Shown in pieces: positions 4,453 through 26,647 of a stretch of 32,000 nucleotides of DNA (position 1 is its first letter; every line of letters starts with the position of its first letter). Origin of the DNA: an archaeon. GTDB lineage: Archaea; Asgardarchaeota; Thorarchaeia; Thorarchaeales; Thorarchaeaceae. The notes below the pieces were generated by a model, which made no database searches, was not told where the DNA came from, and saw nothing but the letters and a program-made list of their open reading frames with translations. The stretch spans positions 57,821 to 89,820 of the forward strand of contig JAJRZD010000020.1 of assembly GCA_024275415.1 (NCBI GenBank), written 5' to 3'. The position numbers and the translations under genes are program-made.

Positions 4453-5811
4453 TCAGATGATAAGTTCACCACGGGATTCAATCTCCTGACGTTTCCGAGC
4501 CAGAGCCTCTTGTCTATCGAACATCCACCGCCAAATTAGGAAAACGATGAATACAGATACGCCGAGTACTCCCAGATACGCATATGTCCACACACCTTGT
4601 GGGAAATGCAACAGAAGGTCGGGTAATGGTCCATTCCAGAAATATGGGAAATTAATGACGACCCCGAAGGCGTATAGAAGACCGACGATGGTAATCAGTT
4701 TAAGATATGCAATTGCCTGACGATCATCGTCAAGCAAGAAGATCAACGCCCCAAACCAGAACAGATACCAGGGCATCACCCATCGGAACGCGAATAGTAG
4801 AGTGGGTATCATATAGATATAAAGAGGTTGCAGCAGTTTCAAGCGTCCCCACCAAGAGGCCTTGAGGAATGCCTCTTTCTCCGGTAAGAATTGATGCACT
4901 GTGATGAGGATAAATGCCAGTACGAGTACCAATGGAATAAGAGCGGGATACCACTGATATGTCGAGCCCTCAGGGCCCCAGACATCCGGCGTCCCCCAAG
5001 CTAGTCCTGGAAAGAGAGGATTCACAATGAACGAGCTGTAAGAGGAGCTGTTCAAGAAATGGGATATAAGAGAATCATAGTTCTGCCCTGCCACAGCAAG
5101 TGGAACAACTGTGATCATAATAGATGCGAAGAACCAAATCAGTGATGTGGGGGCGCTAAGAAACAGGACAGGCAATGCAACGATGGAGTATATCTTCGTC
5201 TGAAATGAAAGCCCTAATGTGAACATCGCCTTGTTGTTTTGACCCTCGCTTCGTAGTACGAGTGCCATAAGCAAGAGGCAGTCTGTAAGTGGCTCAAGCT
5301 TCCCGCCGCCTGCAGACATTATCAGTCCATAGATGAAATATCCTGCAAAGAATAGACGGGCCCAACGAACCTTGTAAACCTTGTCACCTAATAGAATCGC
5401 CATCAATACAAGATTGAGATTGAACACGAGGACTAGGATGAAATTCATCCACATATGCTGAAAACCGCCCACTCCGGGAAACAGGAATGTCGCAATTGCA
5501 AAGAATATCAGTCCAAAGACGGGGTATTCATAGGTTATATTCCCAAGGTAGTCAGGCAGAGTGTGGTTCCCATCTTGGAAGTGTTCACCCATGGCTTCTG
5601 CAACCTCTGCATCATTCATGTCGTACACTGCAAATCCGTAGACCCAGAAAGCTTCCCCGTACATCTCGTTACGGTTTCGATCCCTTTGAATAACTAAGGA
5701 ATCGGCGATGGGAATAGCAATCATCGAGATAGCAAGACTAAGAATAAGGTACTTTCTCATCTCATATATCTTAAAGGAGATTGCATTTAGCATGTGATAG
5801 TCACCATTCAA
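4453..5811 (-). CDS. Polytopic membrane protein, probable GT-C fold glycosyltransferase (GT87/PIG-M-like)
   Basis: Many hydrophobic segments and an acidic extramembrane loop after TM1. YEYPVFG, FQTKIYS and MPWYLFW resemble GT-C motifs. The start may be ATG 5760. Confidence 0.55.
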   Translation of the reverse strand: MNGDYHMLNAISFKIYEMRKYLILSLAISMIAIPIADSLVIQRDRNRNEMYGEAFWVYGFAVYDMNDAEVAEAMGEHFQDGNHTLPDYLGNITYEYPVFGLIFFAIATFLFPGVGGFQHMWMNFILVLVFNLNLVLMAILLGDKVYKVRWARLFFAGYFIYGLIMSAGGGKLEPLTDCLLLMALVLRSEGQNNKAMFTLGLSFQTKIYSIVALPVLFLSAPTSLIWFFASIMITVVPLAVAGQNYDSLISHFLNSSSYSSFIVNPLFPGLAWGTPDVWGPEGSTYQWYPALIPLVLVLAFILITVHQFLPEKEAFLKASWWGRLKLLQPLYIYMIPTLLFAFRWVMPWYLFWFGALIFLLDDDRQAIAYLKLITIVGLLYAFGVVINFPYFWNGPLPDLLLHFPQGVWTYAYLGVLGVSVFIVFLIWRWMFDRQEALARKRQEIESRGELII

Positions 5812-5894
5812 CTTCGACTTCTTTTGATGGCTGTAGGCAAGGACGAGTAACCCATAGTTAACTCTTTTGACGAGTCAATAGGGATTGTGTGAAT

Positions 5895-5906
5895 AAAATA
5901 AAAAAA
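5895..5906 (-). terminator. Oligo-dT terminator after the PAPS-reductase-family gene
   Basis: TTTTTTTATTTT on the minus strand just after the stop at 5913. Confidence 0.5.
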
Positions 5907-5912
5907 CACCAT

Positions 5913-7904
5913 TCAGGTGAGATAGGTCGGACAGGGCCACTCGTCACATCGTAGGCAACTTGTGCATTTGTTTTCATCAACTGCAATTTTGCCATCGACT
6001 AGATGGAGCGCGTTACGGTCACATTTTGGGATACATGAACCACAGGCTTGACAGAAAAGCACCCGTGTGACTGCACGTTCTACTTGACGAGCAAGACGCT
6101 CTATTTGGGATTCACGTTTCCCACGAATGACAAGCGAGCCTGAGCTAAAAAGGATAATCGAGGTGTTTCCTGAGCGTATCCGTAGCGCTCCCAGCTCTTC
6201 GGAGATCTTTGCAGTCCCAAAGATTCCCAATAAGGATACAGCATGTTCTAAATCAACCCCTCCTGAGAACTGCCCTTCGAGACTCAGGTCTGCAACATTA
6301 CATGGCGAAACGCCTTTGACGATCTCCAGCTTCATCTGTTCATTAGGGGCAGGCCTTGTTGCTGATATTGCAAGACCTAACTTCTCGACAAGATTCATCT
6401 GTCCGGGAGGTAGGTTCTTCCATCGCCAGAAGCCATGGGAAATCCATTCAGAAGGATACCCGAGCTTTCGAGACCATCTTCCTAAAATAGAAGTCCACTT
6501 CTGGTGAAGGTGTGGATGTGTTTCTCTGAGGCTTTCGAGTTCAGCCAACGGTGATGCAGGGCATAAATAGCATCCCATGCGGTGGTACCCTTTCTTATAG
6601 AGTTCGTTAAATGGTGCCTGCTCACGGAAGATATACAGCCAGACCTCCAATGCATTCCAGTTCTGTATGGGATTAGCAGACACTTGACCGGGCACCCAAG
6701 GGTTCATGGTCACTCTGGGCTCTATCGAGCGTGTGAAGGATTCCAGCTTCCGTTGGCCCATGAAAGAAAGACTTTTGCCGCCAAGCTCTTTGGCTATCGA
6801 TGTGGCTGCGGGTCCAAGCTTGAGGACTTTGCAACACCATCTGAAATCTCTTGCAGGAGGACCAAACGTGTTCACAGAAACCCAGAACTGCTCACCAGCA
6901 TCAGCACCTATAATGCGAGCACCCTTCAAATCTGCAAAATCACGCACATAACGCTCAGTCTCCGGAAGTTCCAATCCAGTATTCATGAAGAAAAGGGGAG
7001 GGGGTGATATTACCACCTTCTCAACAAGCAGATATGTTACCAACGAATCCTTGCCCCCGCTGAAACCAACAACGATCGGGATGTCAGGATTCTTTGCTAT
7101 GGTACGTTTGATGAATTTCATTGCCTCTTGTTCGATATTGCATAGGTCTTCTTCATTGCCGCGTATTGCATCATCCAATCCAGCAACAACAGGATTGATG
7201 TTGGGGGGCGAAGGATCTGAAACTTCCCTAATCTTGACCGCATGTCCCCTTTTCGCTCGTGCCATGTCTTCACCAGACATCCGTGCGGTTCCAACGGCAA
7301 TCACCTCTCCCCAAGTGTCAATTACCCATACCTCGTCGCCTTTTTGGATGCTAGAATCACATCCAATCACGCCGGGTACTAATAGATTGGCTCCATCCTT
7401 GAGGAAGGAAAGTACGCCGTCATCACATGACACCCAACATTCCTTGCTGACCTGAGCAATCCTCCGGCCTCCTTCAAGAGAAGGGAGGAACTTGTAATCC
7501 TGAGTTTCAATCTCGAACCGAAGCCTTCCGACGAGATGCCCATCAACTATGACCTCAAACATCGCATCCAAGGAAGGAACCTTATTTATGACAACAATCT
7601 TCTCACTAGGGATGACCGACCTTCCTGCGCCAAGTCCAAATTGAACGTCAATCGCATTGATTATCTTTGCAATATGCCCGTCCATTGCGGGGTAAGGGTC
7701 TCCGGGAGGGGATAGCTTCACCTCACGAGGAATATTATTGCAGATAGAACACTCTGTGTTTGCGATTCGGGGAATGTTGCATGTATCACACCACCAGAAC
7801 CGAATCTTGGTCAAATAAGGGGCGTGTCCCCTGCGGAACTTTCTGCGATGCTTTCGTCGTACCAGATGAATCAGTCTCCGTCCATTAGGTTGAGCGGTTT
7901 CCAT
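5913..7904 (-). CDS. PAPS-reductase-family PP-loop protein with PUA domain and C-terminal Fe-S/ferredoxin-like region
   Basis: N-terminal Cys knuckles, PUA-like GANLLVPGV..GDEV, PP-loop FSGGKDS, RWCCKVLK, GCYLCP, and C-terminal CQACGSCIPKC...CTSCLRC. The track start 7937 overlaps aor, so ATG 7904 was chosen. Confidence 0.85.
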   Translation of the reverse strand: METAQPNGRRLIHLVRRKHRRKFRRGHAPYLTKIRFWWCDTCNIPRIANTECSICNNIPREVKLSPPGDPYPAMDGHIAKIINAIDVQFGLGAGRSVIPSEKIVVINKVPSLDAMFEVIVDGHLVGRLRFEIETQDYKFLPSLEGGRRIAQVSKECWVSCDDGVLSFLKDGANLLVPGVIGCDSSIQKGDEVWVIDTWGEVIAVGTARMSGEDMARAKRGHAVKIREVSDPSPPNINPVVAGLDDAIRGNEEDLCNIEQEAMKFIKRTIAKNPDIPIVVGFSGGKDSLVTYLLVEKVVISPPPLFFMNTGLELPETERYVRDFADLKGARIIGADAGEQFWVSVNTFGPPARDFRWCCKVLKLGPAATSIAKELGGKSLSFMGQRKLESFTRSIEPRVTMNPWVPGQVSANPIQNWNALEVWLYIFREQAPFNELYKKGYHRMGCYLCPASPLAELESLRETHPHLHQKWTSILGRWSRKLGYPSEWISHGFWRWKNLPPGQMNLVEKLGLAISATRPAPNEQMKLEIVKGVSPCNVADLSLEGQFSGGVDLEHAVSLLGIFGTAKISEELGALRIRSGNTSIILFSSGSLVIRGKRESQIERLARQVERAVTRVLFCQACGSCIPKCDRNALHLVDGKIAVDENKCTSCLRCDEWPCPTYLT

Positions 7905-16139: not shown

Positions 16140-17669
16140 TTGGTATTGCCATATGAGGCATTCACAGAACAGAACGTGGTCGTAAAAGATGCTTCGAAGG
16201 TGGAGGTTCTTTTCGGGTTTTGTTACCCATCAACATATCGAGCTGGCATGAGCGGGTTGGCTATCCACCTATTCTATGCGATCCTGAATGCAAGAAGCGA
16301 CACTTCCTGTGAGCGGTACTTTAGGTATGATACACGATCCCCAGTCAACTCTGTCGAAACAGGAAGACCGCTTCGTGACAATCATGTGGTGGGATTCTCA
16401 CTCACATATGAAGAGGATATCCTGGGACTTGTCCAGATGCTTGAGATGGGGGGTGTCGAGATACTCGCTAATGAAAGAACCGACGAAGATCCAATCGTGG
16501 TGGTAGGCGGGCCAGTAGTGAGTGCGAACCCAGAGCCGTATGTAGATTTTGTCGATGCATTTGTCATTGGTGAAGGAGACCTTGCCATCCACAATATCAT
16601 CGATGCAGTCAGTCATTCTAACATGAGAGGCGAGGTGTTAGAGGAGATATCAACTGTCGCAGGGATATATGTTCCAGCGTATTCGACAGGCACGATATCT
16701 CGACTCATTATGCCCAACTTGGACGAGGTATTCCATCCTACAACGCAAGTACTTGCCAACACAGAAACCCGTTCCCATCTGGAGCAGGTCTTTGGAAGGG
16801 TGCTTCTTGTGGAGGTGAGCCGAGGTTGTGGACATTCCTGCAAGTTCTGCTTGGTAGGGCATATCTGTAGGCCTCGACGTGTCAGGTCAGAGGCGAAACT
16901 GAGGCAGATTATCGAGGAAGGGGTCAAACTCACAGGAGTCAATAAGATAGCGCTGATTGCATCGTCACTTGGGGATCATGACAACTTGGAGGACATTGTT
17001 GGATGGATAGTTGACAATGGATGGGGTCTTTCTACACCATCTTTGAGGGCTGACAAGGTCACACAGAACATTCTTCATCTGTTGAAGAAAGGGGGGCAAC
17101 GAACCCTAACCATAGCACCTGAAACCGGATCCGAACGTTTGAGAAAAGCAGTTGGAAAGGGACTCAACGAGCAAGCGATCTATGATGCTGTACAATTCGC
17201 AAAGAAAGCCGGTTTGCAATCGGTAAAGGCGTACTTCATCATAGGACTGCCAGACGAAACGGATGCTGATGTAGTTGCTATCGCGAGAATGACCAAGAGA
17301 TTGGCAAAAGAATCGGGATTGCGAATTACTACCAACGTGAATCCCTATATCCCAAAGGCGCAAACCCGGTGGGAGCGTGAGCCACAGCCGCCTTTGCCTA
17401 TCCTTCGTAAGAAAATCAAGGTACTCGTGAAAAGTATGCGCAACATACCAAATGCATCACTGGAAGTCCTTGATCCCAGAAGAGCAAGGATCCAAGCAGC
17501 CTTATCACTTGGGGATCAGTCAATAGGGCAGGTGATTAGACTTGCTGCCAGTTATGGAGGGCTTGGGGGATGGCGAAGGGCTGAAAAAGAAACAGGTATC
17601 TCATTCTTTCGGTTAGCAAATGATAAAGAACGGCTAAGGGGAACACTACCTTGGCATTTCATTTCTTAG
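16140..17669 (+). CDS. Radical SAM protein with an N-terminal B12-binding-like domain
   Basis: CxxxCxxC (GCGHSCKFC), GFSLTYE, VVGGP..SANPEP, DAFVIGEG, TIAPETGSERLR, YFIIGLP and YIPKAQT. Abuts the glmU stop. Confidence 0.88.
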   Translation: MVLPYEAFTEQNVVVKDASKVEVLFGFCYPSTYRAGMSGLAIHLFYAILNARSDTSCERYFRYDTRSPVNSVETGRPLRDNHVVGFSLTYEEDILGLVQMLEMGGVEILANERTDEDPIVVVGGPVVSANPEPYVDFVDAFVIGEGDLAIHNIIDAVSHSNMRGEVLEEISTVAGIYVPAYSTGTISRLIMPNLDEVFHPTTQVLANTETRSHLEQVFGRVLLVEVSRGCGHSCKFCLVGHICRPRRVRSEAKLRQIIEEGVKLTGVNKIALIASSLGDHDNLEDIVGWIVDNGWGLSTPSLRADKVTQNILHLLKKGGQRTLTIAPETGSERLRKAVGKGLNEQAIYDAVQFAKKAGLQSVKAYFIIGLPDETDADVVAIARMTKRLAKESGLRITTNVNPYIPKAQTRWEREPQPPLPILRKKIKVLVKSMRNIPNASLEVLDPRRARIQAALSLGDQSIGQVIRLAASYGGLGGWRRAEKETGISFFRLANDKERLRGTLPWHFIS

Positions 17670-18394: not shown

Positions 18395-19264
18395 ATGACA
18401 AAACAAAAACTCAATTCAACACTCACTTCGAAGCAGAGGAAGTTTATCCGTGAACTAATAGCTCCTGATCTGGCAAAACAGAACCTCGCGAGCTGGCAAG
18501 AGGCATGCAGAAATTTTGGGCCTTTCGACTATAATAAGACCACAAGGAAGATATGGTTCGAGAAAAATAAACACCGAATTCCTACAGGAAAGAAAATCCT
18601 GCAGTTCTACAATAAATGGGCAAAGAACTTGCGAAAGGAAGAAATCCTTCGGTCTGCTTCAATGTCTGCAATACGGAAAGACCTGATTGATGCTATCAGG
18701 GAAGAACAAAAGAAACAAGGAATCGACACTAACAAACTGAACGATTTTAAAATCGCCACGTTCAGTACTCTTTTGTCGTGGTCAGAGGATTCAGCGAAAC
18801 TGGAACAAGGGCCATACGAAGGAAGCAGCATGCTTCCCTCTGAGAAACGCAAAACAGGTACATCGAAACGTGGTCGGAAGGCAGCTAAAGGCAGATTTGG
18901 CCCTCCAGAAGTAGAGCTTGTAAAGGGATACGAGGTCAAAGGGAATTCACTTAAACTCGAGATAGGAATTTCGAACAATAACCTACACCCATTCCAGAAC
19001 GTGGATCTGGAACTGAATATTGATTCGAACCTCGAAGTGAAATCTGTTCGCGACTGTACGTGGATTCCATCTGAAAATAAAATCAGGATTGGGTTCCTTC
19101 CGGCCTCACTTGAAGTGTACCCGGAGGAAACAACCATCACCATCAATCTGGGAATGAAAAGTACAGCAAAGACATTCACCGTCGAGGGGGTAGTTCACTT
19201 CGATAATACCGAGAAAGGTCGCAGAGAGTCCTTAGACCTTAAGGCAATGAAAATCAAAATCTAA
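18395..19264 (+). CDS. Hypothetical protein (helical N-domain, basic linker, beta-sandwich-like C-domain)
   Basis: 289-aa ORF with GGGAG upstream and an AT-rich promoter-like region before it. I recognise no family. Confidence 0.75.
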   Translation: MTKQKLNSTLTSKQRKFIRELIAPDLAKQNLASWQEACRNFGPFDYNKTTRKIWFEKNKHRIPTGKKILQFYNKWAKNLRKEEILRSASMSAIRKDLIDAIREEQKKQGIDTNKLNDFKIATFSTLLSWSEDSAKLEQGPYEGSSMLPSEKRKTGTSKRGRKAAKGRFGPPEVELVKGYEVKGNSLKLEIGISNNNLHPFQNVDLELNIDSNLEVKSVRDCTWIPSENKIRIGFLPASLEVYPEETTITINLGMKSTAKTFTVEGVVHFDNTEKGRRESLDLKAMKIKI

Positions 19265-19992
19265 CATCCAAGTGTGGACTGACTTCGGACGTAAAGATCA
19301 GCGAACAGTTGCTTCAGATAGGAAGGGCTTGTCCATTCTATCAATTCACCGTAAGGATCTGATGCGCGTAGTGCATAACCCGCCATTATCCTCAGGAGAT
19401 CACCCTTGAATCCAGCTGCACCATGAACCTTGTGTCCATTCGCGGAGAATGTTTGAACTATCCTGTTATCTGCGGGAAACCAGACATGGTTTGTGGGACT
19501 GTCACGCATGACGAATTGGATTACTGTCGTGGATTCCTTTTCGATCCAGTCAGTACCAAGTGAAAGAAAATAGTCTTTGCCCAACGCAAGATACATGAGA
19601 TCATACTGTTCAAGACAGTGTTCTTCGAAATCGTGGGGAATGCCCAGATTCTCCGCTCGCTCTTGTAGTTCACGTTTTTTCATTCCTGAGAATGCGCAGT
19701 CATAAGGGGGAACAAGGTCATTCTCTCTCAAGAAGCCAAAACCCGCTGAGATGATATAAAAGTCAATTATGGCATCATCGATTGTTCGTAGCAGGTCGAG
19801 TCCCTTAACGAGCTCACGATTCTGATTCCCAGTGTACATGACACGAGCAGGATGACAAAGATCTTTGAATTCCTCTTGCCATCGTCGAATGTCACCTTTC
19901 GTCTGAATCTCATTGCACGTTGGACTACGAGGATGCGATGATAACTTCTTCTTCCCGCAACTTCCAACGATACAAATCCTCAAACTACTCAC
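19261..19992 (-). CDS. DUF6884/YaaA-like protein, partner of the DpdA-like transglycosylase
   Basis: ICIVGSCGKKK, PARVMYTG, YIISAGFGFL..VPPYD..F and YDLMYLALGKDY match my recollection of DUF6884-type domains at DpdA loci. Confidence 0.7.
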   Translation of the reverse strand: MSSLRICIVGSCGKKKLSSHPRSPTCNEIQTKGDIRRWQEEFKDLCHPARVMYTGNQNRELVKGLDLLRTIDDAIIDFYIISAGFGFLRENDLVPPYDCAFSGMKKRELQERAENLGIPHDFEEHCLEQYDLMYLALGKDYFLSLGTDWIEKESTTVIQFVMRDSPTNHVWFPADNRIVQTFSANGHKVHGAAGFKGDLLRIMAGYALRASDPYGELIEWTSPSYLKQLFADLYVRSQSTLGC

Positions 19993-20017
19993 CTGTTAGG
20001 AGTTTCTTGGGGGATGC

Positions 20018-20025
20018 TTTGATAA
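20018..20025. promoter_or_regulatory. Candidate bidirectional TATA-like element
   Basis: TTTGATAA (+) / TTATCAAA (-) lies 26 nt from GTG 19992 and 29 nt from ATG 20054. Confidence 0.35.
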
Positions 20026-20114
20026 GGTCTTTTGTTGTACTCGATAGATAGAGATGTTGGACGGAGATTTTCCTGAAACGAAGACGTATTAATCCAGATA
20101 GTGTCGCCTACTTT

Positions 20115-21296
20115 GTGCCGTGGTGGGACGATTACGTGTCATTGCATTATGATTTCATGACAGACAGACCTCTCGATGATATCAAGGTCACTGCACATCA
20201 CCTCTATGAAGAGCCACCTTACGATGGGATTCTCGTTTCCAAGGTGAAGATAGAGGACAACAAGAAGCGCCTGAAAGAAGTTATCGACAAAGGGATTCAT
20301 GCATTCCTCGAGTTCGAGGGGCCCATATTTGGCGATTGTGGAGCTTTTGGGTATATCAACGAGAGAACCCCACCATTCGATCCAGCTGATATCGCAGACT
20401 ATTACAACTCAATAGGATTCGATTATGGCGTAAGTGTGGATCATCTAATTGTGCCAGCAGTCGATGATGAAAAGGAGTACCGCTTCGATATTACGCTCAA
20501 GAATGCAGAGAGGTTCCTCCGGCGGCATAAGGAGAAAGAATATGATTTCGTTCCTGTCGGGGCTGCGCAAGGATGGAACGCTCGTTCGTACAAGAGCGCG
20601 GTTCACGAGCTACTTGATATGGGCTATGAGTACATTGCAATTGGTGGGCTGACAAGATCACAGACACCGGAAGTCCTACGAGTGATGCGTGCAGTAAAGG
20701 AAGAGGTTGGGGCACAGAAAAACATCGGGATACACCTATTTGGTGTTGCAAGGTTGAATGCATTGCTCGAGCTGCGGTCGTTGGGATTGACCTCATTCGA
20801 TTCTGCGTCGCATCTTAGAAGAGCTTGGCTTGGCGCCAATTCGAACTACATTACTGCGAATGGACAGGGATACGCTGCATTGCGAGTACCTCAGTCGGAC
20901 AGAAGTCCGAAAGCAAAGAAAATCATCGACACACGAGGGATATCCCTCGAAGAGCTGAAGGCATACGAAGAAGCTTGTCTGACACTGATTAGATCATATG
21001 ATAGGGGAGAGGCAGAGATAGATGAGGTGCTGGAGGCCCTTCTGTGGTATGACAACCTCATGGACGATTCAAGAAATCATGGAGCCCATTACAAAAGAAC
21101 CTTGACCGATATGCCATGGCAGAAGTGCGATTGTCGAATATGTAAAGAGTGGGGAGTCGAAGTAATAATATTCAGAGGGAACAACAGGAACAGAAGAAGA
21201 GGCTTTCATAATACGAGGATATTCTATGACCAGTTTCGAAAACTACTTGCAGAAGACAGAACGGTCGATATGCAGCAACGCCTCGATGGACTCTGA
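20115..21296 (+). CDS. dpdA: DpdA-like 7-deazaguanine transglycosylase (TGT superfamily, no PUA domain)
   Basis: (YFV)PWWDDYV..YDF, PPYDGILVS, GDCGAF (catalytic Asp position), GVSVDHL, GAAQGW, IAIGGL, HLFG, SFDSAS (second Asp) and the Zn site CxCxxC-x21-H with RGNNRNRRRGFHN. The true start is probably upstream of 20115. Confidence 0.85.
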   Translation: MPWWDDYVSLHYDFMTDRPLDDIKVTAHHLYEEPPYDGILVSKVKIEDNKKRLKEVIDKGIHAFLEFEGPIFGDCGAFGYINERTPPFDPADIADYYNSIGFDYGVSVDHLIVPAVDDEKEYRFDITLKNAERFLRRHKEKEYDFVPVGAAQGWNARSYKSAVHELLDMGYEYIAIGGLTRSQTPEVLRVMRAVKEEVGAQKNIGIHLFGVARLNALLELRSLGLTSFDSASHLRRAWLGANSNYITANGQGYAALRVPQSDRSPKAKKIIDTRGISLEELKAYEEACLTLIRSYDRGEAEIDEVLEALLWYDNLMDDSRNHGAHYKRTLTDMPWQKCDCRICKEWGVEVIIFRGNNRNRRRGFHNTRIFYDQFRKLLAEDRTVDMQQRLDGL

Positions 21297-21328
21297 GAGT
21301 TTCGTGACCGGAAAGAAGATGAACCAAC

Positions 21329-21872
21329 ATGAAAGCACAGGTGAGTCACTGGTTCGACGGCCCGGTAGTATTAGAATTCACAAGAAAAGACCTCAAGAAG
21401 TGGAAGCCATCTGATATGCCGATTCTTTTTGTGCCTTGCTCGAAGTACAAGCCGATACAGGAATCAAAGTCACAAGCAGATGTCCCATAGGTTCCGCAAT
21501 ATCTGTGACATGCGTATACTTTCAGAACCACTCACAGTCATCCCATACGAATGGCATGAATATCCATTCTACGAGTATCCCCCAAGGGCACTTTGGAGAA
21601 TCAATGGCGAGTCTGATAAGTTCAAGGAGCGATTGGTAAGGTTCCTCAAGAAGAACAGGCTAAATAAGTTGGGCTGCCTTTTCTTCACTCTACATCATCA
21701 CTTGATGATACTCTGGCCTTCATGGGAAGAGGCATTTGGAAACATCAACAGTCTGTTCGGTTATGCGTACACATATGCTACCAGATGGTTCTTCTTGCAG
21801 AAGATGGAACAATTGATTGACGGACTCCAGCCTAGGACGGGCGGTAAGCGCCCCTCTCTCGTGCCCATTTGA
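21329..21872 (+). pseudogene. ArcS-like DUF5591-domain gene split by a +1 frame break near 21470 (pseudogene, assembly error or recoding)
   Basis: Frame A (21329-21490) reads MKAQVSHWFDG...ILFVPCSKYKPIQESKS. Frame B from 21471 reads HKQM..FRNICDMRILSEPLTVIPYEW..YPFYEYP..LW..F..RL..FLKK. Joined, they give the PCSxxKPxxxSKSH...SEPLxxxP signature of the archaeosine synthase DUF5591 domain. Confidence 0.75.
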
Positions 21873-23232
21873 TGGTATCGGGGTCACATCGTTTGAGCTC
21901 ACGTTCGGGAAAATCACTCAGCAGGTTCCAGCCGATATCAAGAGTCTGATCGAATGATCTGTCTTCGAATTCTCCTTGTCCGATGAACTCTTCCTCAAAC
22001 CGATCCGCGAACCGCAGGTACTTCTGGTCACGATCAGTCAGTGCCTCCGAACCTACGACTGCTACCAAGTCTCGCAAGTCACGTCCTTCAGAGTAGGCAT
22101 AGTAGAGCTGTGCCTGAATCTCCTTATGGTCAAAGCGAGTCATTCCTTCACCGATACCTTCCTTCATGAGCCTGCTAAGAGAAGGTCCTGGGTCAATTGG
22201 GGGATAGATACCCCTGCGATGCAAACCTCGACCGACAATCATCTGACCTTCTGTAATATATCCTGAAAGGTCTGGAATAGGGTGGGTCATATCGTCTTGC
22301 GGCATGGAGAGAATCGGCATCTGCGTGATGGTTCCCTTCCTGCCATTGATACGACCTGCACGCTCGTAGATTAGACTCAAGTCGGTGTAGAGATATCCAG
22401 GATAACCTCGGCGCCCAGGAATCTCTGAGCGGGCCGCGCTAATCTCTCGCAGTGCTTCGGCATAGTTGGTCATATCTGTAAGGATGACAAGAACATGCAT
22501 ATCAGATTCGTAAGCAAGATATTCTGCTGCTGTAAGTGTCGCACGCGGTGTGATGATTCGTTCGATAGCAGGGTCATTTGCAAGATTCAGGAAGAGTGTG
22601 GTATGTTCGAGAGCTCCGGTTTCTTCGAATGAGTTGATAAAGTACTGTGCCTCTGTGGCAGTAATTCCCATCGCTCCAAAGACAATTGCAAAATCACCCT
22701 CTTCTCCGGGAATCTTAGCCTGACGGACAATCTGTGCTGCAATCCTATTGTGTGGTAGCCCTGATCCCGAGAAGATAGGGAGTTTCTGACCTCTCACGAG
22801 CGTGTTCAACCCATCGATGACTGAGAGACCAGTTTGGATTGGCTGCCGGGGATACTGCCGAGCATATGGGTTGATGGGAGAGCCGTAGATGTCCCAGTGA
22901 TCTTCGGCTGTAAGAGGAGGTCCTTTGTCGAGAGGATTGCCCGCCCCATCCAGAACACGTCCCAAGATCTCGGAAGAAACAGGAAGCTTCATCGTTTCAC
23001 CAGTGAATCGGGCAGCAGTCACCTCTGCATCGAGACCACTTGTTCCCTCAAACACTTGGATGACCGCCCTTCCACGACCCGTTTCCAAGACGGTTCCCGT
23101 CAAAAGGTCGCCATTTGGCGCTCGAATCTTTACGACCTCGTTATAGGCTACGTTGTGAGTTTGTTCAACAATTAGTAATGGACCACTGACATCGGATACC
23201 GTCCGATATTCGATAGAGGACTTGTTCGACAT
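21832..23232 (-). CDS. atpB: A/V-type ATP synthase subunit B
   Basis: [52 protein letters not shown] and THPIPDL. Confidence 0.97.
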
Positions 23233-23329: not shown

Positions 23330-23848
23330 TCAGAGAATTGAGGAAACGTATACGAAGGAAAGCACAGCAGCAAGGATAACACCTCGCACCATCAACGAGT
23401 GCCCTCTGGACTTGAGGTCATTCGAAGTTGGATTGAAGTATAGGATTGCACCGACCACTATGCAGATTGCCATGACACCATCACCAAACAGGACTAGCAG
23501 GGACAGGAATTCACCTTCAAGCATACCGAAGAAGCTGAGGAATGCGGCCGTGGCATCTGCTTCCGTAATAGGGTCAACACCGATGAAGCCGGCCAGAAAG
23601 TTAGCTGTCATAGGTCCTGCAAAGAAAAGGAAGACTCCGAAAAGGACTAGGCTCTTGGCAGTGCCATCACTCAATCCTGTGGCATATACCATGAAACCAA
23701 GGAGAACGAGGATGAGATATCCATGCAGTGCAAATGCATATGCAATGCTGAGAAGCGTGCGAAGGGCATTAAAATATCCTGCAAGATCAGGATCGGAACT
23801 GAGTTGCAGCATCAGAATCAATGTATCTTCACGAAGCATATCCTTCAC
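23330..23848 (-). CDS. Small polytopic membrane protein
   Basis: Four to five hydrophobic helices and an apparent internal duplication of a hairpin. Confidence 0.7.
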   Translation of the reverse strand: MKDMLREDTLILMLQLSSDPDLAGYFNALRTLLSIAYAFALHGYLILVLLGFMVYATGLSDGTAKSLVLFGVFLFFAGPMTANFLAGFIGVDPITEADATAAFLSFFGMLEGEFLSLLVLFGDGVMAICIVVGAILYFNPTSNDLKSRGHSLMVRGVILAAVLSFVYVSSIL

Positions 23849-23883
23849 AGTACAATGTCAGCGCCATCCAATTTAACCGCCAC

Positions 23884-24453
23884 TTATCGTAACTCTGCCT
23901 TCAACTTTTGGAAATCCTGGTGCATGAGAGCTCGCGTCTTGGGAAATCGAAGAGCAGCAGCAGGATGATAAGTGAGAAAATAGGTCAGTCCTTTAGCCTC
24001 GTGGAATCTCCCATGAGCCTCGCTAAGACGCCACGGACCTATGACTGACGATATCGCCACACTTCCAAGAAGTACTATGATCTTGGGAGAAACGATCTCA
24101 ATTTGATTGTCAAGGAAATACATGCATTTGCCAATCTCATCTCTATGAGGGGTTCTATTCCTCGGCGGACGGGACTTTAACACGGAAGTGATGAATACTT
24201 CCTCACGTTGCAGTCCTATCTCATTCAGCATCTCTGTCAGAAGGCTACCGGATCGCCCAACGAATGGACGACCCGTCATATCCTCTTGGGCACCCGGAGC
24301 CTCACCAATGAACATGACTTTAGCATCGAGAGGACCTTCACCTGGCACTGCCTTTGTTCGGGATGTGTGCAGAGAACATCGTGTGCAGGATGCAATCTCA
24401 TCATGTAGTGCTTTCAATGCTTTTTTGCGATTCATCATATTCAAGAAGAGCAC
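23884..24453 (-). CDS. udg: Family-4 uracil-DNA glycosylase (Fe-S)
   Basis: CTRCSL, VPGEG, FIGEAPG, GRPFVGRSG, RPPRNR.P and TYHPAA. Confidence 0.93.
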   Translation of the reverse strand: MLFLNMMNRKKALKALHDEIASCTRCSLHTSRTKAVPGEGPLDAKVMFIGEAPGAQEDMTGRPFVGRSGSLLTEMLNEIGLQREEVFITSVLKSRPPRNRTPHRDEIGKCMYFLDNQIEIVSPKIIVLLGSVAISSVIGPWRLSEAHGRFHEAKGLTYFLTYHPAAALRFPKTRALMHQDFQKLKAELR

Positions 24454-24492: not shown

Positions 24493-26295
24493 TTAAGCAC
24501 TGGGGACAATTGCTCCAGCCTCATGTATCTCCTTGTATAATGCTTCGAACTCTTTCTCCATCTTGGACTCGATAGCATCCATTGTAGCGTCGTAGCTGTC
24601 CCATGGCGCAATCTTCATCCGAGCGATGTTATCGAGGCAACTGAACTCAAGGATTCGTCGCACACTGACTCCCATATTCACTGCTTCAGCCATCTTTCTT
24701 GAGAAGTTGATGATGATCCTGAGCATTCGATAGGTCTTTCTGATCGGGCAGAAAGTATCAATCTCGTGGATGGCACTTTGAGTAAGGAAGTCTTCCTTAA
24801 TCATTCGTGCAGCCTCAAGGGTAGCACGTTCCGATTCTGGTAGTGCGTCAGGACCTACAAGCTGGACAATCTCTCTAAGCTCTTGATCCTTCTGTAAGAG
24901 CGCCATTGCTTCTTTAACCAATAGTGGCCAATCTTCACCGAGCTCTTTCTTGTGCCAAGATTCCAAGTTGCCATGATAAAGCGAATAGCTGGTGAGAGCA
25001 TTGATAGCAGGGAAGAACCGCCTTGCAGCAAGGTCTTTGTCTAGTGCCCAGAACACCTTCACAATTCGCAGTGTTGCTTGCGTGACAGGCTCTGAGAAGT
25101 CACCACCAGGTGGTGAAACAGCACCACAGAGAGTAATCGAACCAGTTCGGTCCTCAGACCCAAGTGTCTTAACTCTGCCTCCACGCTCATAGAATTGAGC
25201 CAATCTTGAGCCGAGATATGCGGGATACCCTTCCTCGGAGGGAAGCTGTCCTAGACGGCCTGAAATCTCTCGCAATGCTTCTGCCCAACGAGAGGTCGAA
25301 TCAGCCATCAATGCAACATCATAGCCTTGATCCCGGAAGTACTCGGCGATGGTCACAGCCACATAGATAGATGCCTCTCGTGCAGCAACAGGCATATTGG
25401 ATGTGTTTGCAATGAGGACTGTGCGCTCCATGAGAGGTCTACCGCTCTGTGGGTCGTTAAGATGAGGCCACTCCTCAAGGGCTTCGGTCATCTCATTTCC
25501 GCGCTCGCCACATCCTACATATACAACGACTTGAGCGTCAGCCCATTTTGCAAACTGATGAAGGGTGACAGTCTTTCCAGTGCCAAATCCACCAGGAATC
25601 GCTCCCGTTCCACCTTTTGCTTGAGGCATGAATGTATCGATAACACGCTGACCGGTGATAAGCGGTATCTCAAGAGGGACACGTTCCTTGAACGGGCGTC
25701 CGACACGGACAGGAGTCTTTTGCATCATGATGACATCATGGACATCTCCATGTTCGTCCTTGACCTTACAGATTGGTTCAACAATGGTATACTCGCCTTT
25801 GGACACGATTTCGACGATCTCGCCTTGTATTCCATGAGGAATCAGTATCTTTGAAGTGATAATACCTGTTTCGGGAACTACGCCAATAACGTCACCAGGT
25901 TCGACCTTATCTCCAACCTTGACAGAAGGATTGAATTCCCATTTCTTTTCTCTATCGAGCCCCTCAATCGTCAAACCACGTGTTATGAAATCTCCAGAGA
26001 GGTTCTTGAGCCCTGGGAGAGGACGTTGAATCCCATCATATATGGAGCCAAGAAGACCAGGGCCTAGCTCTACAGACAGTGCGTCACCAGTTGAAACGAC
26101 CGGTTCCCCAGGGGACACGCCAGATGTTTCCTCATAGACCTGAGCTGTGAACTCTTCATCACCGACCTCGATCACTTCACCAATGAGTTGTTCATTTCCT
26201 ACACGGACGACTTCATACATACGCACACCTGGGATTCCTGAACATCGTACGACAGGACCGGCGATACTTTCAATTTTTCCAGTAGTTTTGGTCAT
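24493..26295 (-). CDS. atpA: A/V-type ATP synthase subunit A (no intein)
   Basis: Walker A GGFGTGKT, YVGCGERGNEM, DSTSRWAEALRE, EEGYPAYL and VSPPGGD. ATG 26295 follows GAGGAG; the track's 26346 start overlaps atpF. Confidence 0.97.
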   Translation of the reverse strand: MTKTTGKIESIAGPVVRCSGIPGVRMYEVVRVGNEQLIGEVIEVGDEEFTAQVYEETSGVSPGEPVVSTGDALSVELGPGLLGSIYDGIQRPLPGLKNLSGDFITRGLTIEGLDREKKWEFNPSVKVGDKVEPGDVIGVVPETGIITSKILIPHGIQGEIVEIVSKGEYTIVEPICKVKDEHGDVHDVIMMQKTPVRVGRPFKERVPLEIPLITGQRVIDTFMPQAKGGTGAIPGGFGTGKTVTLHQFAKWADAQVVVYVGCGERGNEMTEALEEWPHLNDPQSGRPLMERTVLIANTSNMPVAAREASIYVAVTIAEYFRDQGYDVALMADSTSRWAEALREISGRLGQLPSEEGYPAYLGSRLAQFYERGGRVKTLGSEDRTGSITLCGAVSPPGGDFSEPVTQATLRIVKVFWALDKDLAARRFFPAINALTSYSLYHGNLESWHKKELGEDWPLLVKEAMALLQKDQELREIVQLVGPDALPESERATLEAARMIKEDFLTQSAIHEIDTFCPIRKTYRMLRIIINFSRKMAEAVNMGVSVRRILEFSCLDNIARMKIAPWDSYDATMDAIESKMEKEFEALYKEIHEAGAIVPSA

Positions 26296-26323
26296 GACAA
26301 TTATCTCCTCTGCATTTGGGGGA

Positions 26324-26647
26324 TCACACATTGATTTCGATTCCAACGGCCCGACGTATTAGCTCTCTCAGCACAGTTTCATATGCACCAGTCGAGCCTT
26401 CTCTATCAGGGATAAGCAGAATCACAGGAACTGGAGCCTCTGAGAGCTCCAAAATGGTATCCTCCACCTGCATTGCAAGGGGCTCAGTGATGATAATCAA
26501 GCCCATTCTGGGGTCTCTGAAATAGTCAAGCAGGGCTTTTCGAATCTCATTTACATTGTTCGGAACAGAACTCTCTTGAACACCGACCATTCGGAAACCA
26601 GTGACTGTGTCACGGTCACCGATGATGGCTATCTTATCACTGACCAT
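26324..26647 (-). CDS. atpF: A/V-type ATP synthase subunit F
   Basis: KIAIIGDRDTVTGFRMVGV, GLIIITE and PVILLIP. Confidence 0.92.
   Translation of the reverse strand: MVSDKIAIIGDRDTVTGFRMVGVQESSVPNNVNEIRKALLDYFRDPRMGLIIITEPLAMQVEDTILELSEAPVPVILLIPDREGSTGAYETVLRELIRRAVGIEINV

Follow-up and report, generated by a model that had tools for sequence, protein, structure and literature searches.

A candidate DpdB-less 7-deazaguanine DNA-modification cassette, apparently partly decayed, in the chromosome of a Thorarchaeota-type Asgard archaeon

The subject of this study is a gene cluster in a window of 32,000 nucleotides from a Thorarchaeaceae archaeon (Asgardarchaeota; contig JAJRZD010000020.1 of assembly GCA_024275415.1, positions 57,821 to 89,820); all positions below are those of this whole stretch. 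The source is a metagenome-assembled genome (MAG) of 127 contigs and 3.5 Mb, which is 92.9% complete. Region 19261-21872 corresponded to three open reading frames (ORFs) in the ORF list, one divergent and two co-oriented, in agreement with the original prediction, which had been made from the sequence alone: a gene for a DUF6884 protein (referred to as gene A; 19261..19992, -), a gene for a DpdA-type transglycosylase (dpdA; 20115..21296, +), and a gene for a stand-alone DUF5591 protein (arcS2; +, ending at 21872). The prediction spoke of a minimal three-gene cassette; the three genes stand, but a further gene was overlooked, hyp289 (18395..19264, +; 289 amino acids), which is convergent with gene A, overlaps it by 4 nucleotides, and is its obligatory partner, as described below. 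The gene order hyp289 (+), DUF6884 (-), dpdA (+), arcS2 (+), and atpB (-) was the same in relatives (G005, G014, G020, G037, and L008), and two short contigs also bore dpdA and arcS2 together. A neighbourhood survey had been proposed for exactly this triad; it recurs, with order and chromosomal site unchanged, in at least seven other Thorarchaeota-type assemblies, which means that the arrangement is not due to chance. We consider it rather probable that the locus is a chromosomal DNA-modification cassette of Thorarchaeota-type Asgard archaea, which introduces 7-deazaguanines such as preQ0 (7-cyano-7-deazaguanine) without DpdB and consists of two sub-modules, one of which, dpdA-arcS2, is partly decayed in this genome.

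The dpdA product (393 amino acids from the first in-frame start, GTG) matched the NCBIfam DpdA model NF041059 with 410 bits (cut-off of 200) and the PADLOC DpdA model with an E value of 1.5e-111. Scores against models of the tRNA-guanine transglycosylase (TGT) type were 51.8 bits for ArcTGT (TIGR00432; cut-off of 350) and 33.1 bits for bacterial Tgt; similarly, the E value against the solved structure of Salmonella DpdA (7UI4) was 2.7e-68 vs 5e-8 for ArcTGT (1iq8). In the alignment with 7UI4, D74, D109, and D229 of the window protein corresponded to D95, D130, and D256 of Salmonella DpdA, in which Asp95 functions as the acid/base, Asp256 as the nucleophile, and Asp130 in base binding (PMC10164549). 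The Zn site was also retained (C338/C340/C343/H365, aligned with CECNIC...H of 7UI4), and the Pfam search gave the TGT domain as the sole match, with no PUA domain; the two catalytic Asp motifs, the Zn site, and the lack of a PUA domain had been read correctly from the sequence at the outset. Gln152 (GAAQGW) stands in place of His181 of Salmonella DpdA in the window and in all Thorarchaeota-type (Thor) orthologues, and is probably a conservative variation. The nearest homologues were Thorarchaeota-labelled proteins (58-77% identity), followed by those of other Asgard archaea, and the closest non-archaeal relatives were bacterial DUF6884-DpdA fusion proteins, with a DpdA part that was 45-51% identical; among phage records, one alone matched Thor DpdA (33% identity). 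Purifying selection acts on DpdA (w = 0.03). By these comparisons, the enzyme is a putative DNA-guanine transglycosylase of the bacterial (bDpdA) type, and does not cluster with tRNA-specific ArcTGT or QueTGT.

This assignment bears directly on whether the substrate of the DpdA-like enzyme and its partners is RNA (tRNA or another), in an additional archaeosine-type pathway, instead of DNA. The host indeed has an archaeosine pathway (ArcTGT and ArcS), DpdB was not found, and Gln152 replaces a histidine of Salmonella DpdA at a position at which tRNA TGTs presumably carry Gln. On the other hand, the DpdA scores were far above those of tRNA TGTs, PUA and C-terminal tRNA-binding domains are absent, and canonical ArcTGT and ArcS are already encoded elsewhere in the genome; we regard an RNA substrate as very improbable.

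The downstream gene, arcS2, is split into two overlapping ORFs (21329-21490 and 21429-21872, +). The 5' part up to the frame break (21329..21469, +; Pfam DUF5591, E value of 2.6e-3) includes the start of the C1 motif of ArcS (...PILFVPCSKYKPIQESK) and aligned with residues 1-45 of intact orthologues of 165-175 amino acids. The 3' part in the +1 frame (21471..21872, +; HKQMSHRF...ILSEP...; DUF5591, E value of 6.8e-4) was otherwise open and 55-58% identical to the orthologues. Between them, at 21470..21470 (+), a single T stands for the Ser/Thr codon of the orthologues, i.e., 2 nucleotides are missing or 1 is extra, and this lesion lies between Ser and His of the S-X2-H element of C1. The motif of the orthologues is PC-SKx-KPI-Qx-S-xS-H, with I replacing Y of PC-X3-KPY-X2-S-X2-H; in the window it is not contained in one open frame, the break falling between S and H. 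The orthologues are located directly 3' of dpdA, lack the Nt (TGT-like), C2, and PUA domains, and are under purifying selection (w = 0.04). The proposal of an ArcS-like DUF5591 gene with the motifs PCSKYKP and ILSEP was thus borne out, in the form of an ArcS C1-only protein. The frameshift inside the catalytic motif suggests that the arcS2 product of this genome is probably inactive.

A second lesion was found upstream of dpdA. The divergent intergenic region (19993..20114) contains a stranded 5' coding remnant of dpdA, recognized from the sequence, its translations, and the N-termini of orthologues: from ~20064, the sequence in the dpdA frame encodes the conserved N-terminus (EIFLK...AYFV before PWWDD), which aligned with MKRLEISLN...SYFIPWWDD of P0004 and MEIYLN...DYYIPWWDD of P0002. 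No in-frame ATG, GTG, or TTG for this remnant was present back to the TAG at 20049; the ATG at 20054 is one base out of the dpdA frame, placing the lesion near 20063. At best, dpdA starts at GTG 20115 with the loss of ~20 N-terminal residues, and a product could still be made.

Since the seven flanking genes aligned at full length with their orthologues, the lesions are concentrated in the 1.8-kb dpdA-arcS2 stretch, in which both of them lie. In addition, arcS2 is missing from the contig of the relative with the most similar DpdA (77% identity). We infer from this that mutations, and not faults of the assembly, account for the lesions: in this genome, the dpdA-arcS2 sub-module appears to be partly decayed, with arcS2 in all likelihood a pseudogene of recent origin and dpdA a possibly impaired gene. 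Frameshifts could, however, be consensus errors in a MAG of this kind (127 contigs, 92.9% complete), in which case, or if the frame breaks are bypassed, intact DpdA and ArcS2 would be made and the cassette would be fully functional here. The otherwise open and well-conserved bodies of both ORFs, the 134 stop-free codons of the 3' part of arcS2 at the identity given above, and the 58-77% identity of DpdA with its relatives are in keeping with such errors. Nevertheless, errors confined to dpdA-arcS2 amid seven colinear, full-length genes are less easily explained, the arcS2 lesion, if a 2-nucleotide deletion, cannot be put down to a homopolymer slip of one base, and losses of dpdA and arcS2 are common among relatives, with arcS2 gone in the closest one; full function in this genome is therefore somewhat unlikely in our estimation, and we continue with partial decay.

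Gene A encodes 243 amino acids and was classified by its matches to DUF6884 and DpdC models and by its fold. The PADLOC DpdC model matched residues 6-113 only (E value of 2.3e-7, 28.5 bits), the Pfam YaaA model gave a match below its threshold (E value of 2e-3), and the NCBIfam search returned no match for the protein. All members of the gene A family (32/32) matched PADLOC DpdC models, with a best E value of 3.9e-14, and full-length gene A was 25% identical to the DUF6884 domain of a bacterial DUF6884-DpdA fusion (E value of 6e-23). C12-x3-K16 (C12-GKK-K16) and I80-I-S-A-G-F-G86 (S82-A83-G84-x-G86) were invariant in the alignment of the 32 family sequences; the CxxxK and LSAxxG motifs have been defined for DUF6884 by the Pfam authors (PMC11701544). 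The AlphaFold2 (AF2) model of gene A has a predicted local distance difference test (pLDDT) score of 94.3. Its top match in the PDB was YaaA (5caj; Foldseek E value of 1.5e-4, TM of 0.46), which was also the sole structure with Z >= 8 by VIA (Z of 9.5, root-mean-square deviation (rmsd) of 5.1, 184 aligned residues), and an AFDB entry for DUF6884 gave a TM of 0.81; the predicted structure is thus a YaaA-like "cantaloupe" alpha/beta fold. The description of the divergent gene as DUF6884/YaaA-like therefore holds, and these results point to a distant DpdC-like subfamily rather than an orthologue of DpdC. In the bacterial Dpd system, DpdC is a DUF6884 protein (PMC11888242), and converts preQ0-DNA to DNA containing ADG (7-amido-7-deazaguanine) independently of DpdA and DpdB (PMC10164549).

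The original prediction also suggested a kinship between the Cys-x3-Lys motifs of gene A and the DUF5591 protein, which could not be demonstrated. In an hhalign comparison, the DUF5591 and DUF6884 alignments met in the motif only (13 columns, probability of 1.4%, E value of 0.037). The DUF5591 structure 2q07 was not among the top 50 PDB matches of the gene A model in Foldseek, and in VIA-align it was ranked 21 (Z of 6.3, rmsd of 3.9, 124 aligned residues), tied with generic alpha/beta folds.

hyp289 was recognized by its adjacency and fusion to DUF6884. It had no match in Pfam, NCBIfam, or PADLOC, and the search of a protein atlas gave no usable match. The AF2 model (pLDDT of 85) consists of an N-terminal helical domain (~12-137), a basic disordered linker (~150-165), and a C-terminal Ig-like beta-sandwich (168-289), of which the beta-sandwich alone gave matches in fold searches, to generic Ig-like or appendage sandwiches. 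The gene adjoined DUF6884, at the same locus as in the window, in all of the inspected loci of relatives that carry DUF6884 (15/15). In other Asgard families, the DUF6884 protein has a length of 394-535 amino acids: in the proteins of 521-535 amino acids, hyp289 is fused C-terminally to DUF6884 (E values of 1e-26 and 9e-22 with the hyp289 hidden Markov model), whereas the 394-amino-acid fusions bear only the helical part. By sequence, DUF6884-hyp289 is a Rosetta-stone fusion. Prediction of a complex of gene A and hyp289 gave a value of 0.41 vs 0.03 for the best control, with agreement between runs in at least 2% of contacts and a partner pLDDT of at least 73. Of 80 solved complexes, 58 reach the mark applied to such predictions, as do 2 of 110 mismatched pairs; at values of <= 0.60, only 7 of those 80 complexes and both mismatches reach it. 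Accordingly, the prediction gives weak support to a complex. Both genes are under purifying selection (w = 0.075-0.13 for hyp289 and 0.12-0.34 for DUF6884). Overall, the DUF6884 gene has an obligatory partner in hyp289, and we found no description of this module in the literature on Dpd. In a DpdA-less clade (genus g9: L048, L049, G013, G024, G026, G042, and G044), hyp289 is shortened to the N-terminal helical domain of ~150 amino acids. Since this clade and the 394-amino-acid Asgard fusions keep only the helical part, this domain seems to be the essential partner region.

The two sub-modules differ in distribution. Among the 61 genomes of the order that were searched for DpdA, DUF6884, and hyp289, DpdA was present in 5, with a remnant in one more, DUF6884 in 20, and hyp289 in 22. 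In 15 genomes, including same-genus relatives, DUF6884 adjoins atpB without dpdA or arcS2; 10 of these loci were directly inspected, and the remaining genomes were counted from the genome searches. Selection on the pair remains purifying in DpdA-less genomes (w = 0.15-0.34 for DUF6884 and 0.11-0.13 for hyp289). With regard to an alternative DNA transglycosylase, the DpdA-less relatives yielded only TGT matches of the ArcTGT/ArcS type, and DUF6610/DpdA4 was not found; in G032, there was one weak TGT-like ORF of 361 amino acids. In one locus (L051; G048:C22, ~5611-6343), a truncated hyp289 (residues 17-167) abuts the last ~73 codons of dpdA, resembling the scar of a deletion that took DUF6884 and most of dpdA. 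Because the pair persists under selection without DpdA, DUF6884 cannot be regarded purely as a tailoring enzyme for the product of DpdA, as had been proposed.

This retention raises the question of whether DUF6884 and hyp289 form an independent system, e.g., a YaaA/YfjM-like DNA-lesion or base-flipping factor, which merely shares a variable site with an inserted dpdA-arcS2 and performs no tailoring. Of the 61 genomes, 20 carry the pair vs 5 with DpdA, purifying selection acts on the pair where DpdA is absent, a DNA-repair role has been proposed by the Pfam authors for the DUF6884 member YfjM (PMC11701544), and a gene for a family-4 uracil-DNA glycosylase (UDG) is located nearby. However, DUF6884-DpdA fusions are recurrent in bacteria in both orders, many with ~670 amino acids, and one of them lies beside FolE2-QueC-QueD-QueE and HerA/UvrD/nuclease genes; DUF6884 was present at 9 of 10 non-Thor Asgard DpdA loci; and DpdC, a DUF6884 protein, has proven activity on preQ0-DNA (PMC10164549; PMC11888242). 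Furthermore, the DpdA-linked Thor copies grouped together in the DUF6884 tree (support of 80/89), while the flanking-gene tree dispersed the same genomes, a pattern suggestive of co-evolution or of recombinational exchange of the cassette. The link between DUF6884 and DpdA is ancient, and a wholly independent system is, in our judgement, on the unlikely side; we retain a DpdC-like tailoring role, to which a role outside Dpd may be added.

Two further types of locus were encountered among the DUF6884-DpdA relatives. In Desulfosporosinus and Paenibacillus (L059 and L060), the fusion gene is followed by genes for a conserved protein of ~400 amino acids and a DUF87/HerA-like ATPase, and the loci also have genes for helicase, nuclease, and GmrSD proteins; they may represent a DpdB-less type of deazaguanine restriction-modification, of which we found no description. 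In a Heimdall-type Asgard (L009/L072; 7273-8250, -), a second, very divergent TGT-fold gene (298-326 amino acids; 35.7 bits with Pfam TGT and 22 with the DpdA model) is convergent to the DpdA gene and lies beside a DUF6884-hyp289 fusion.

Regarding the genomic setting, profile searches of the window identified GlmU-like, TIGR03960-like radical SAM, DUF2095, V-ATPase A/B/F, and family-4 UDG genes in the flanks, and the last 41 nucleotides of arcS2 overlap the convergent atpB (21832-23232, -). An origin from a prophage or mobile element was rejected, as the window has no tRNA genes and conserved housekeeping genes flank the cassette. Neither a nuclease nor a helicase partner was present at any Thor locus examined, and no restriction gene (dpdD-K) was found in the flanks of any locus inspected, a genome-wide search for dpdD-K not having been made. 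The Pfam family PF14072 of the DpdB ATPase, which is DndB/ParB-like, was unmatched in the whole genome (92.9% complete), and DpdB was absent from every Thor and Asgard locus inspected; this accords with the initial view that neither dpdB nor dpdD-K is nearby.

The cassette could instead be the modification half of a restriction-modification-type defence, the restriction genes of which are elsewhere in the genome. Bacterial relatives of the DpdA/DUF6884 clade are indeed found in islands with HerA-like ATPases, UvrD helicases, PD-(D/E)xK nucleases, and GmrSD, and the patchy distribution and the fast evolution of hyp289 and DUF6884 are consistent with a role in defence. We judge this quite unlikely, however, with the same housekeeping genes (GlmU-like, radical SAM, DUF2095, V-ATPase, and UDG) and no nuclease or helicase partner at every locus examined; moreover, the writer has been lost repeatedly with no visible loss of a linked nuclease, which would kill the cell in classical restriction-modification. 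A modification cassette without linked restriction thus remains our preferred interpretation.

The source of preQ0 was also considered. The original prediction assumed that the archaeosine pathway of the host supplies it. The genome encodes canonical ArcTGT and ArcS, but searches of it and of five relatives (74-99% complete) did not yield QueC: the apparent QueC matches in these genomes cover the PP-loop only, and a QueC-like protein of 269 amino acids (G000:C122:10217-10405; L056:1441-2250) proved to be LarE (TIGR00268, 271.7 bits). A PTPS/QueD-like gene is present, although such genes are not confined to preQ0 synthesis. A transporter of the YhhQ/Vut_1 type was not found. Since QueC was not found, preQ0 is probably salvaged rather than made by the host. 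With ArcTGT and ArcS present and QueC not found, the preQ0 for tRNA archaeosine in these archaea must likewise have another source.

A radical SAM gene in the flank (16140-17669) was examined as an RaSEA-like partner of ArcS2. RaSEA belongs to the archaeal tRNA archaeosine pathway alongside ArcTGT and ArcS. The gene was rejected as such a partner: it encodes a TIGR03960-like B12-binding radical SAM protein, no archaeosine-synthase model was among the 17 family matches listed for it, and it occurs in the flank of every locus, whether DpdA is present or not.

V-ATPase A and B subunit genes are expected to be adjacent. Between atpB and atpA (24493-26346), a family-4 UDG (189 amino acids) and a protein of 172 amino acids are encoded (23330-24453, -), the latter having no match in family searches; this insertion is kept in nearly all Thorarchaeota-type loci examined. 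In one locus (L050; G031:C583, 39-3455), atpA of a same-genus relative matched in two blocks, residues 18-260 and 124-616, which lie ~1.3 kb apart, suggesting an intein or insertion in the V-ATPase A subunit. The DUF6884 gene of the same genome contains an in-frame TGA.

The pairing of DpdA with a stand-alone DUF5591 protein ("ArcS2") was thought to be undescribed; however, publications on Vibrio phage nt-1 and Sulfolobus virus STSV2 describe it (Hutinet 2019, PMC6884629; Cui 2023, PMC10516641). DpdA2 of nt-1 alone formed dPreQ0 (the deoxynucleoside of preQ0) in Escherichia coli plasmid DNA, and together with ArcS2 formed dG+ (deoxyarchaeosine) (PMC10516641; PMC6884629). As in these viral pairs, the gene for a PUA-less transglycosylase is followed in Thor by a stand-alone DUF5591 gene of ~170-185 amino acids with a PC-X3-KP...S-X2-H motif. 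The best viral match of the Thor DUF5591 protein was STSV2_16 (25% identity over 73% of the length), itself ArcS2 and directly following the transglycosylase gene STSV2_15, in the same order as in Thor. In contrast to the viral pairs, the Thor pair is chromosomal, in a conserved housekeeping context of a cellular Asgard archaeon, and its DpdA is of the bDpdA type rather than DpdA2 (nt-1) or the short STSV2 type; the cassette adds a DpdC-like DUF6884 gene and hyp289, and its ArcS2 has Ile for Tyr after KP and is encoded by a gene that is broken in this genome.

The Dpd system of Salmonella enterica serovar Montevideo (Gedara 2023, PMC10164549; 7UI4) likewise has a DpdA homologue, the Asp and Zn residues of which are kept in Thor, and a DUF6884-family partner, DpdC, related to gene A. 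The Thor cassette differs in having no DpdB/DndB-like ATPase and no dpdD-K nearby, in a distant DUF6884 subfamily accompanied by or fused to the hyp289 module, in Gln for His181, and in its ArcS2 gene. The nearest non-archaeal relatives of both genes, the bacterial DUF6884-DpdA fusions (~670 amino acids; P0109 of Desulfosporosinus fructosivorans and P0044 of Paenibacillus tyrfis), share with Thor the lack of DpdB at their loci, and the Desulfosporosinus locus adds FolE2-QueC-QueD-QueE, which ties the clade to preQ0. Unlike in Thor, these loci fuse DUF6884 and DpdA rather than encode them divergently and are located beside HerA-like ATPase, helicase, and nuclease genes; hyp289 and ArcS2 were not seen there. 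The archaeal tRNA archaeosine pathway also combines a TGT-fold enzyme with a DUF5591 catalytic core acting on preQ0, although its canonical enzymes have ~650-690 amino acids with extra C-terminal/PUA domains, which the cassette proteins lack.

From these comparisons, a reaction scheme may be proposed. By its conserved residues, DpdA would exchange guanine in DNA for preQ0 by double displacement, with one Asp as the nucleophile and another as the acid/base, and the preQ0 would be supplied by salvage. By analogy with DpdA2 and ArcS2 of nt-1, intact ArcS2 would then tailor the nitrile of preQ0 in the DNA, with dG+ as an archaeosine-type product. DUF6884 and hyp289 may form a two-part DpdC-like enzyme, in which the cysteine of CxxxK would attack the nitrile to give dADG (the deoxynucleoside of ADG) and hyp289 would provide nucleic-acid binding or targeting; the pair must also have a substrate or role independent of DpdA. 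Thus, a cassette acting on DNA-bound preQ0 with two nitrile-tailoring partners, as originally envisaged, is upheld in the type of DpdA, the DpdC-like partner, the ArcS C1-only partner, and the recurrence of the genes, but not in the novelty of the pairing, the host origin of preQ0, or the completeness of the three genes. The family assignments, conserved residues, synteny, fusions, selection, and two lesions are observations, from which we infer DNA as the substrate, the chemistry, and the products.

Several points weigh against this interpretation, in addition to the possible consensus errors discussed above. The function of every member of the clade is a predicted one. Bacterial DpdA requires the DpdB ATPase (PMC10164549), none was found here, and activity on double-stranded DNA is therefore only putative. 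DUF6884 and hyp289 are under selection in 15 genomes without a detectable DNA transglycosylase, and their main role may be unrelated to DpdA. A DpdC-like enzyme and ArcS2 competing for one nitrile would be an unusual design, and neither QueC nor a YhhQ-type transporter was found as a source of preQ0. At the level of family models, gene A scored 24 bits with Pfam DUF6884 (PF21818; E value of 4.6e-5), below the gathering score of 30; its orthologue in L006 scored 27.2 bits, while related Asgard and bacterial members passed with 30.8-43.9 bits. The two arcS2 pieces of the window scored 18.1 and 19.9 bits with PF17884 (gathering score of 26), and this is because the gene is split; the intact orthologue (L006:7259-7786) scored 39.2 bits and also matched ArcS NF040592 in the C1 region.

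Modification of DNA by 7-deazaguanines has been documented in bacteria (Dpd), phages, and archaeal viruses, and we found no report of it for cellular archaea. Nor did we find a paper on this cassette in Asgard archaea, which among prokaryotes are the closest relatives of eukaryotes. The cassette is not a new kind of system; what is new is a DpdB-less DpdA cassette in cellular archaea with DpdC-like and ArcS2 tailoring genes and the hyp289 module. For this genome, the message is more modest, with an apparent pseudogene in arcS2 and a dpdA that may be impaired. More broadly, we tentatively entertain the possibility that dG+ and/or dADG serve Thorarchaeota and other Asgard archaea as marks on the DNA of their own chromosomes, made using a DpdB-independent DpdA, salvaged preQ0, and a two-part DpdC-like enzyme (fused in Heimdall-type lineages) with a second, DpdA-independent substrate, because of which the pair would be retained after loss of the writer. 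Should intact orthologues of the cassette prove active, they would represent a DpdA that works without the DpdB ATPase, amide-forming and amidine-forming tailoring enzymes in one cell, a new module, hyp289, partnering the DpdC fold, and a DNA mark dependent on salvaged preQ0. Lineages that lost the writer, as happened repeatedly, but retained DUF6884 and hyp289 provide a natural experiment on the roles of DpdC-like proteins beyond Dpd.

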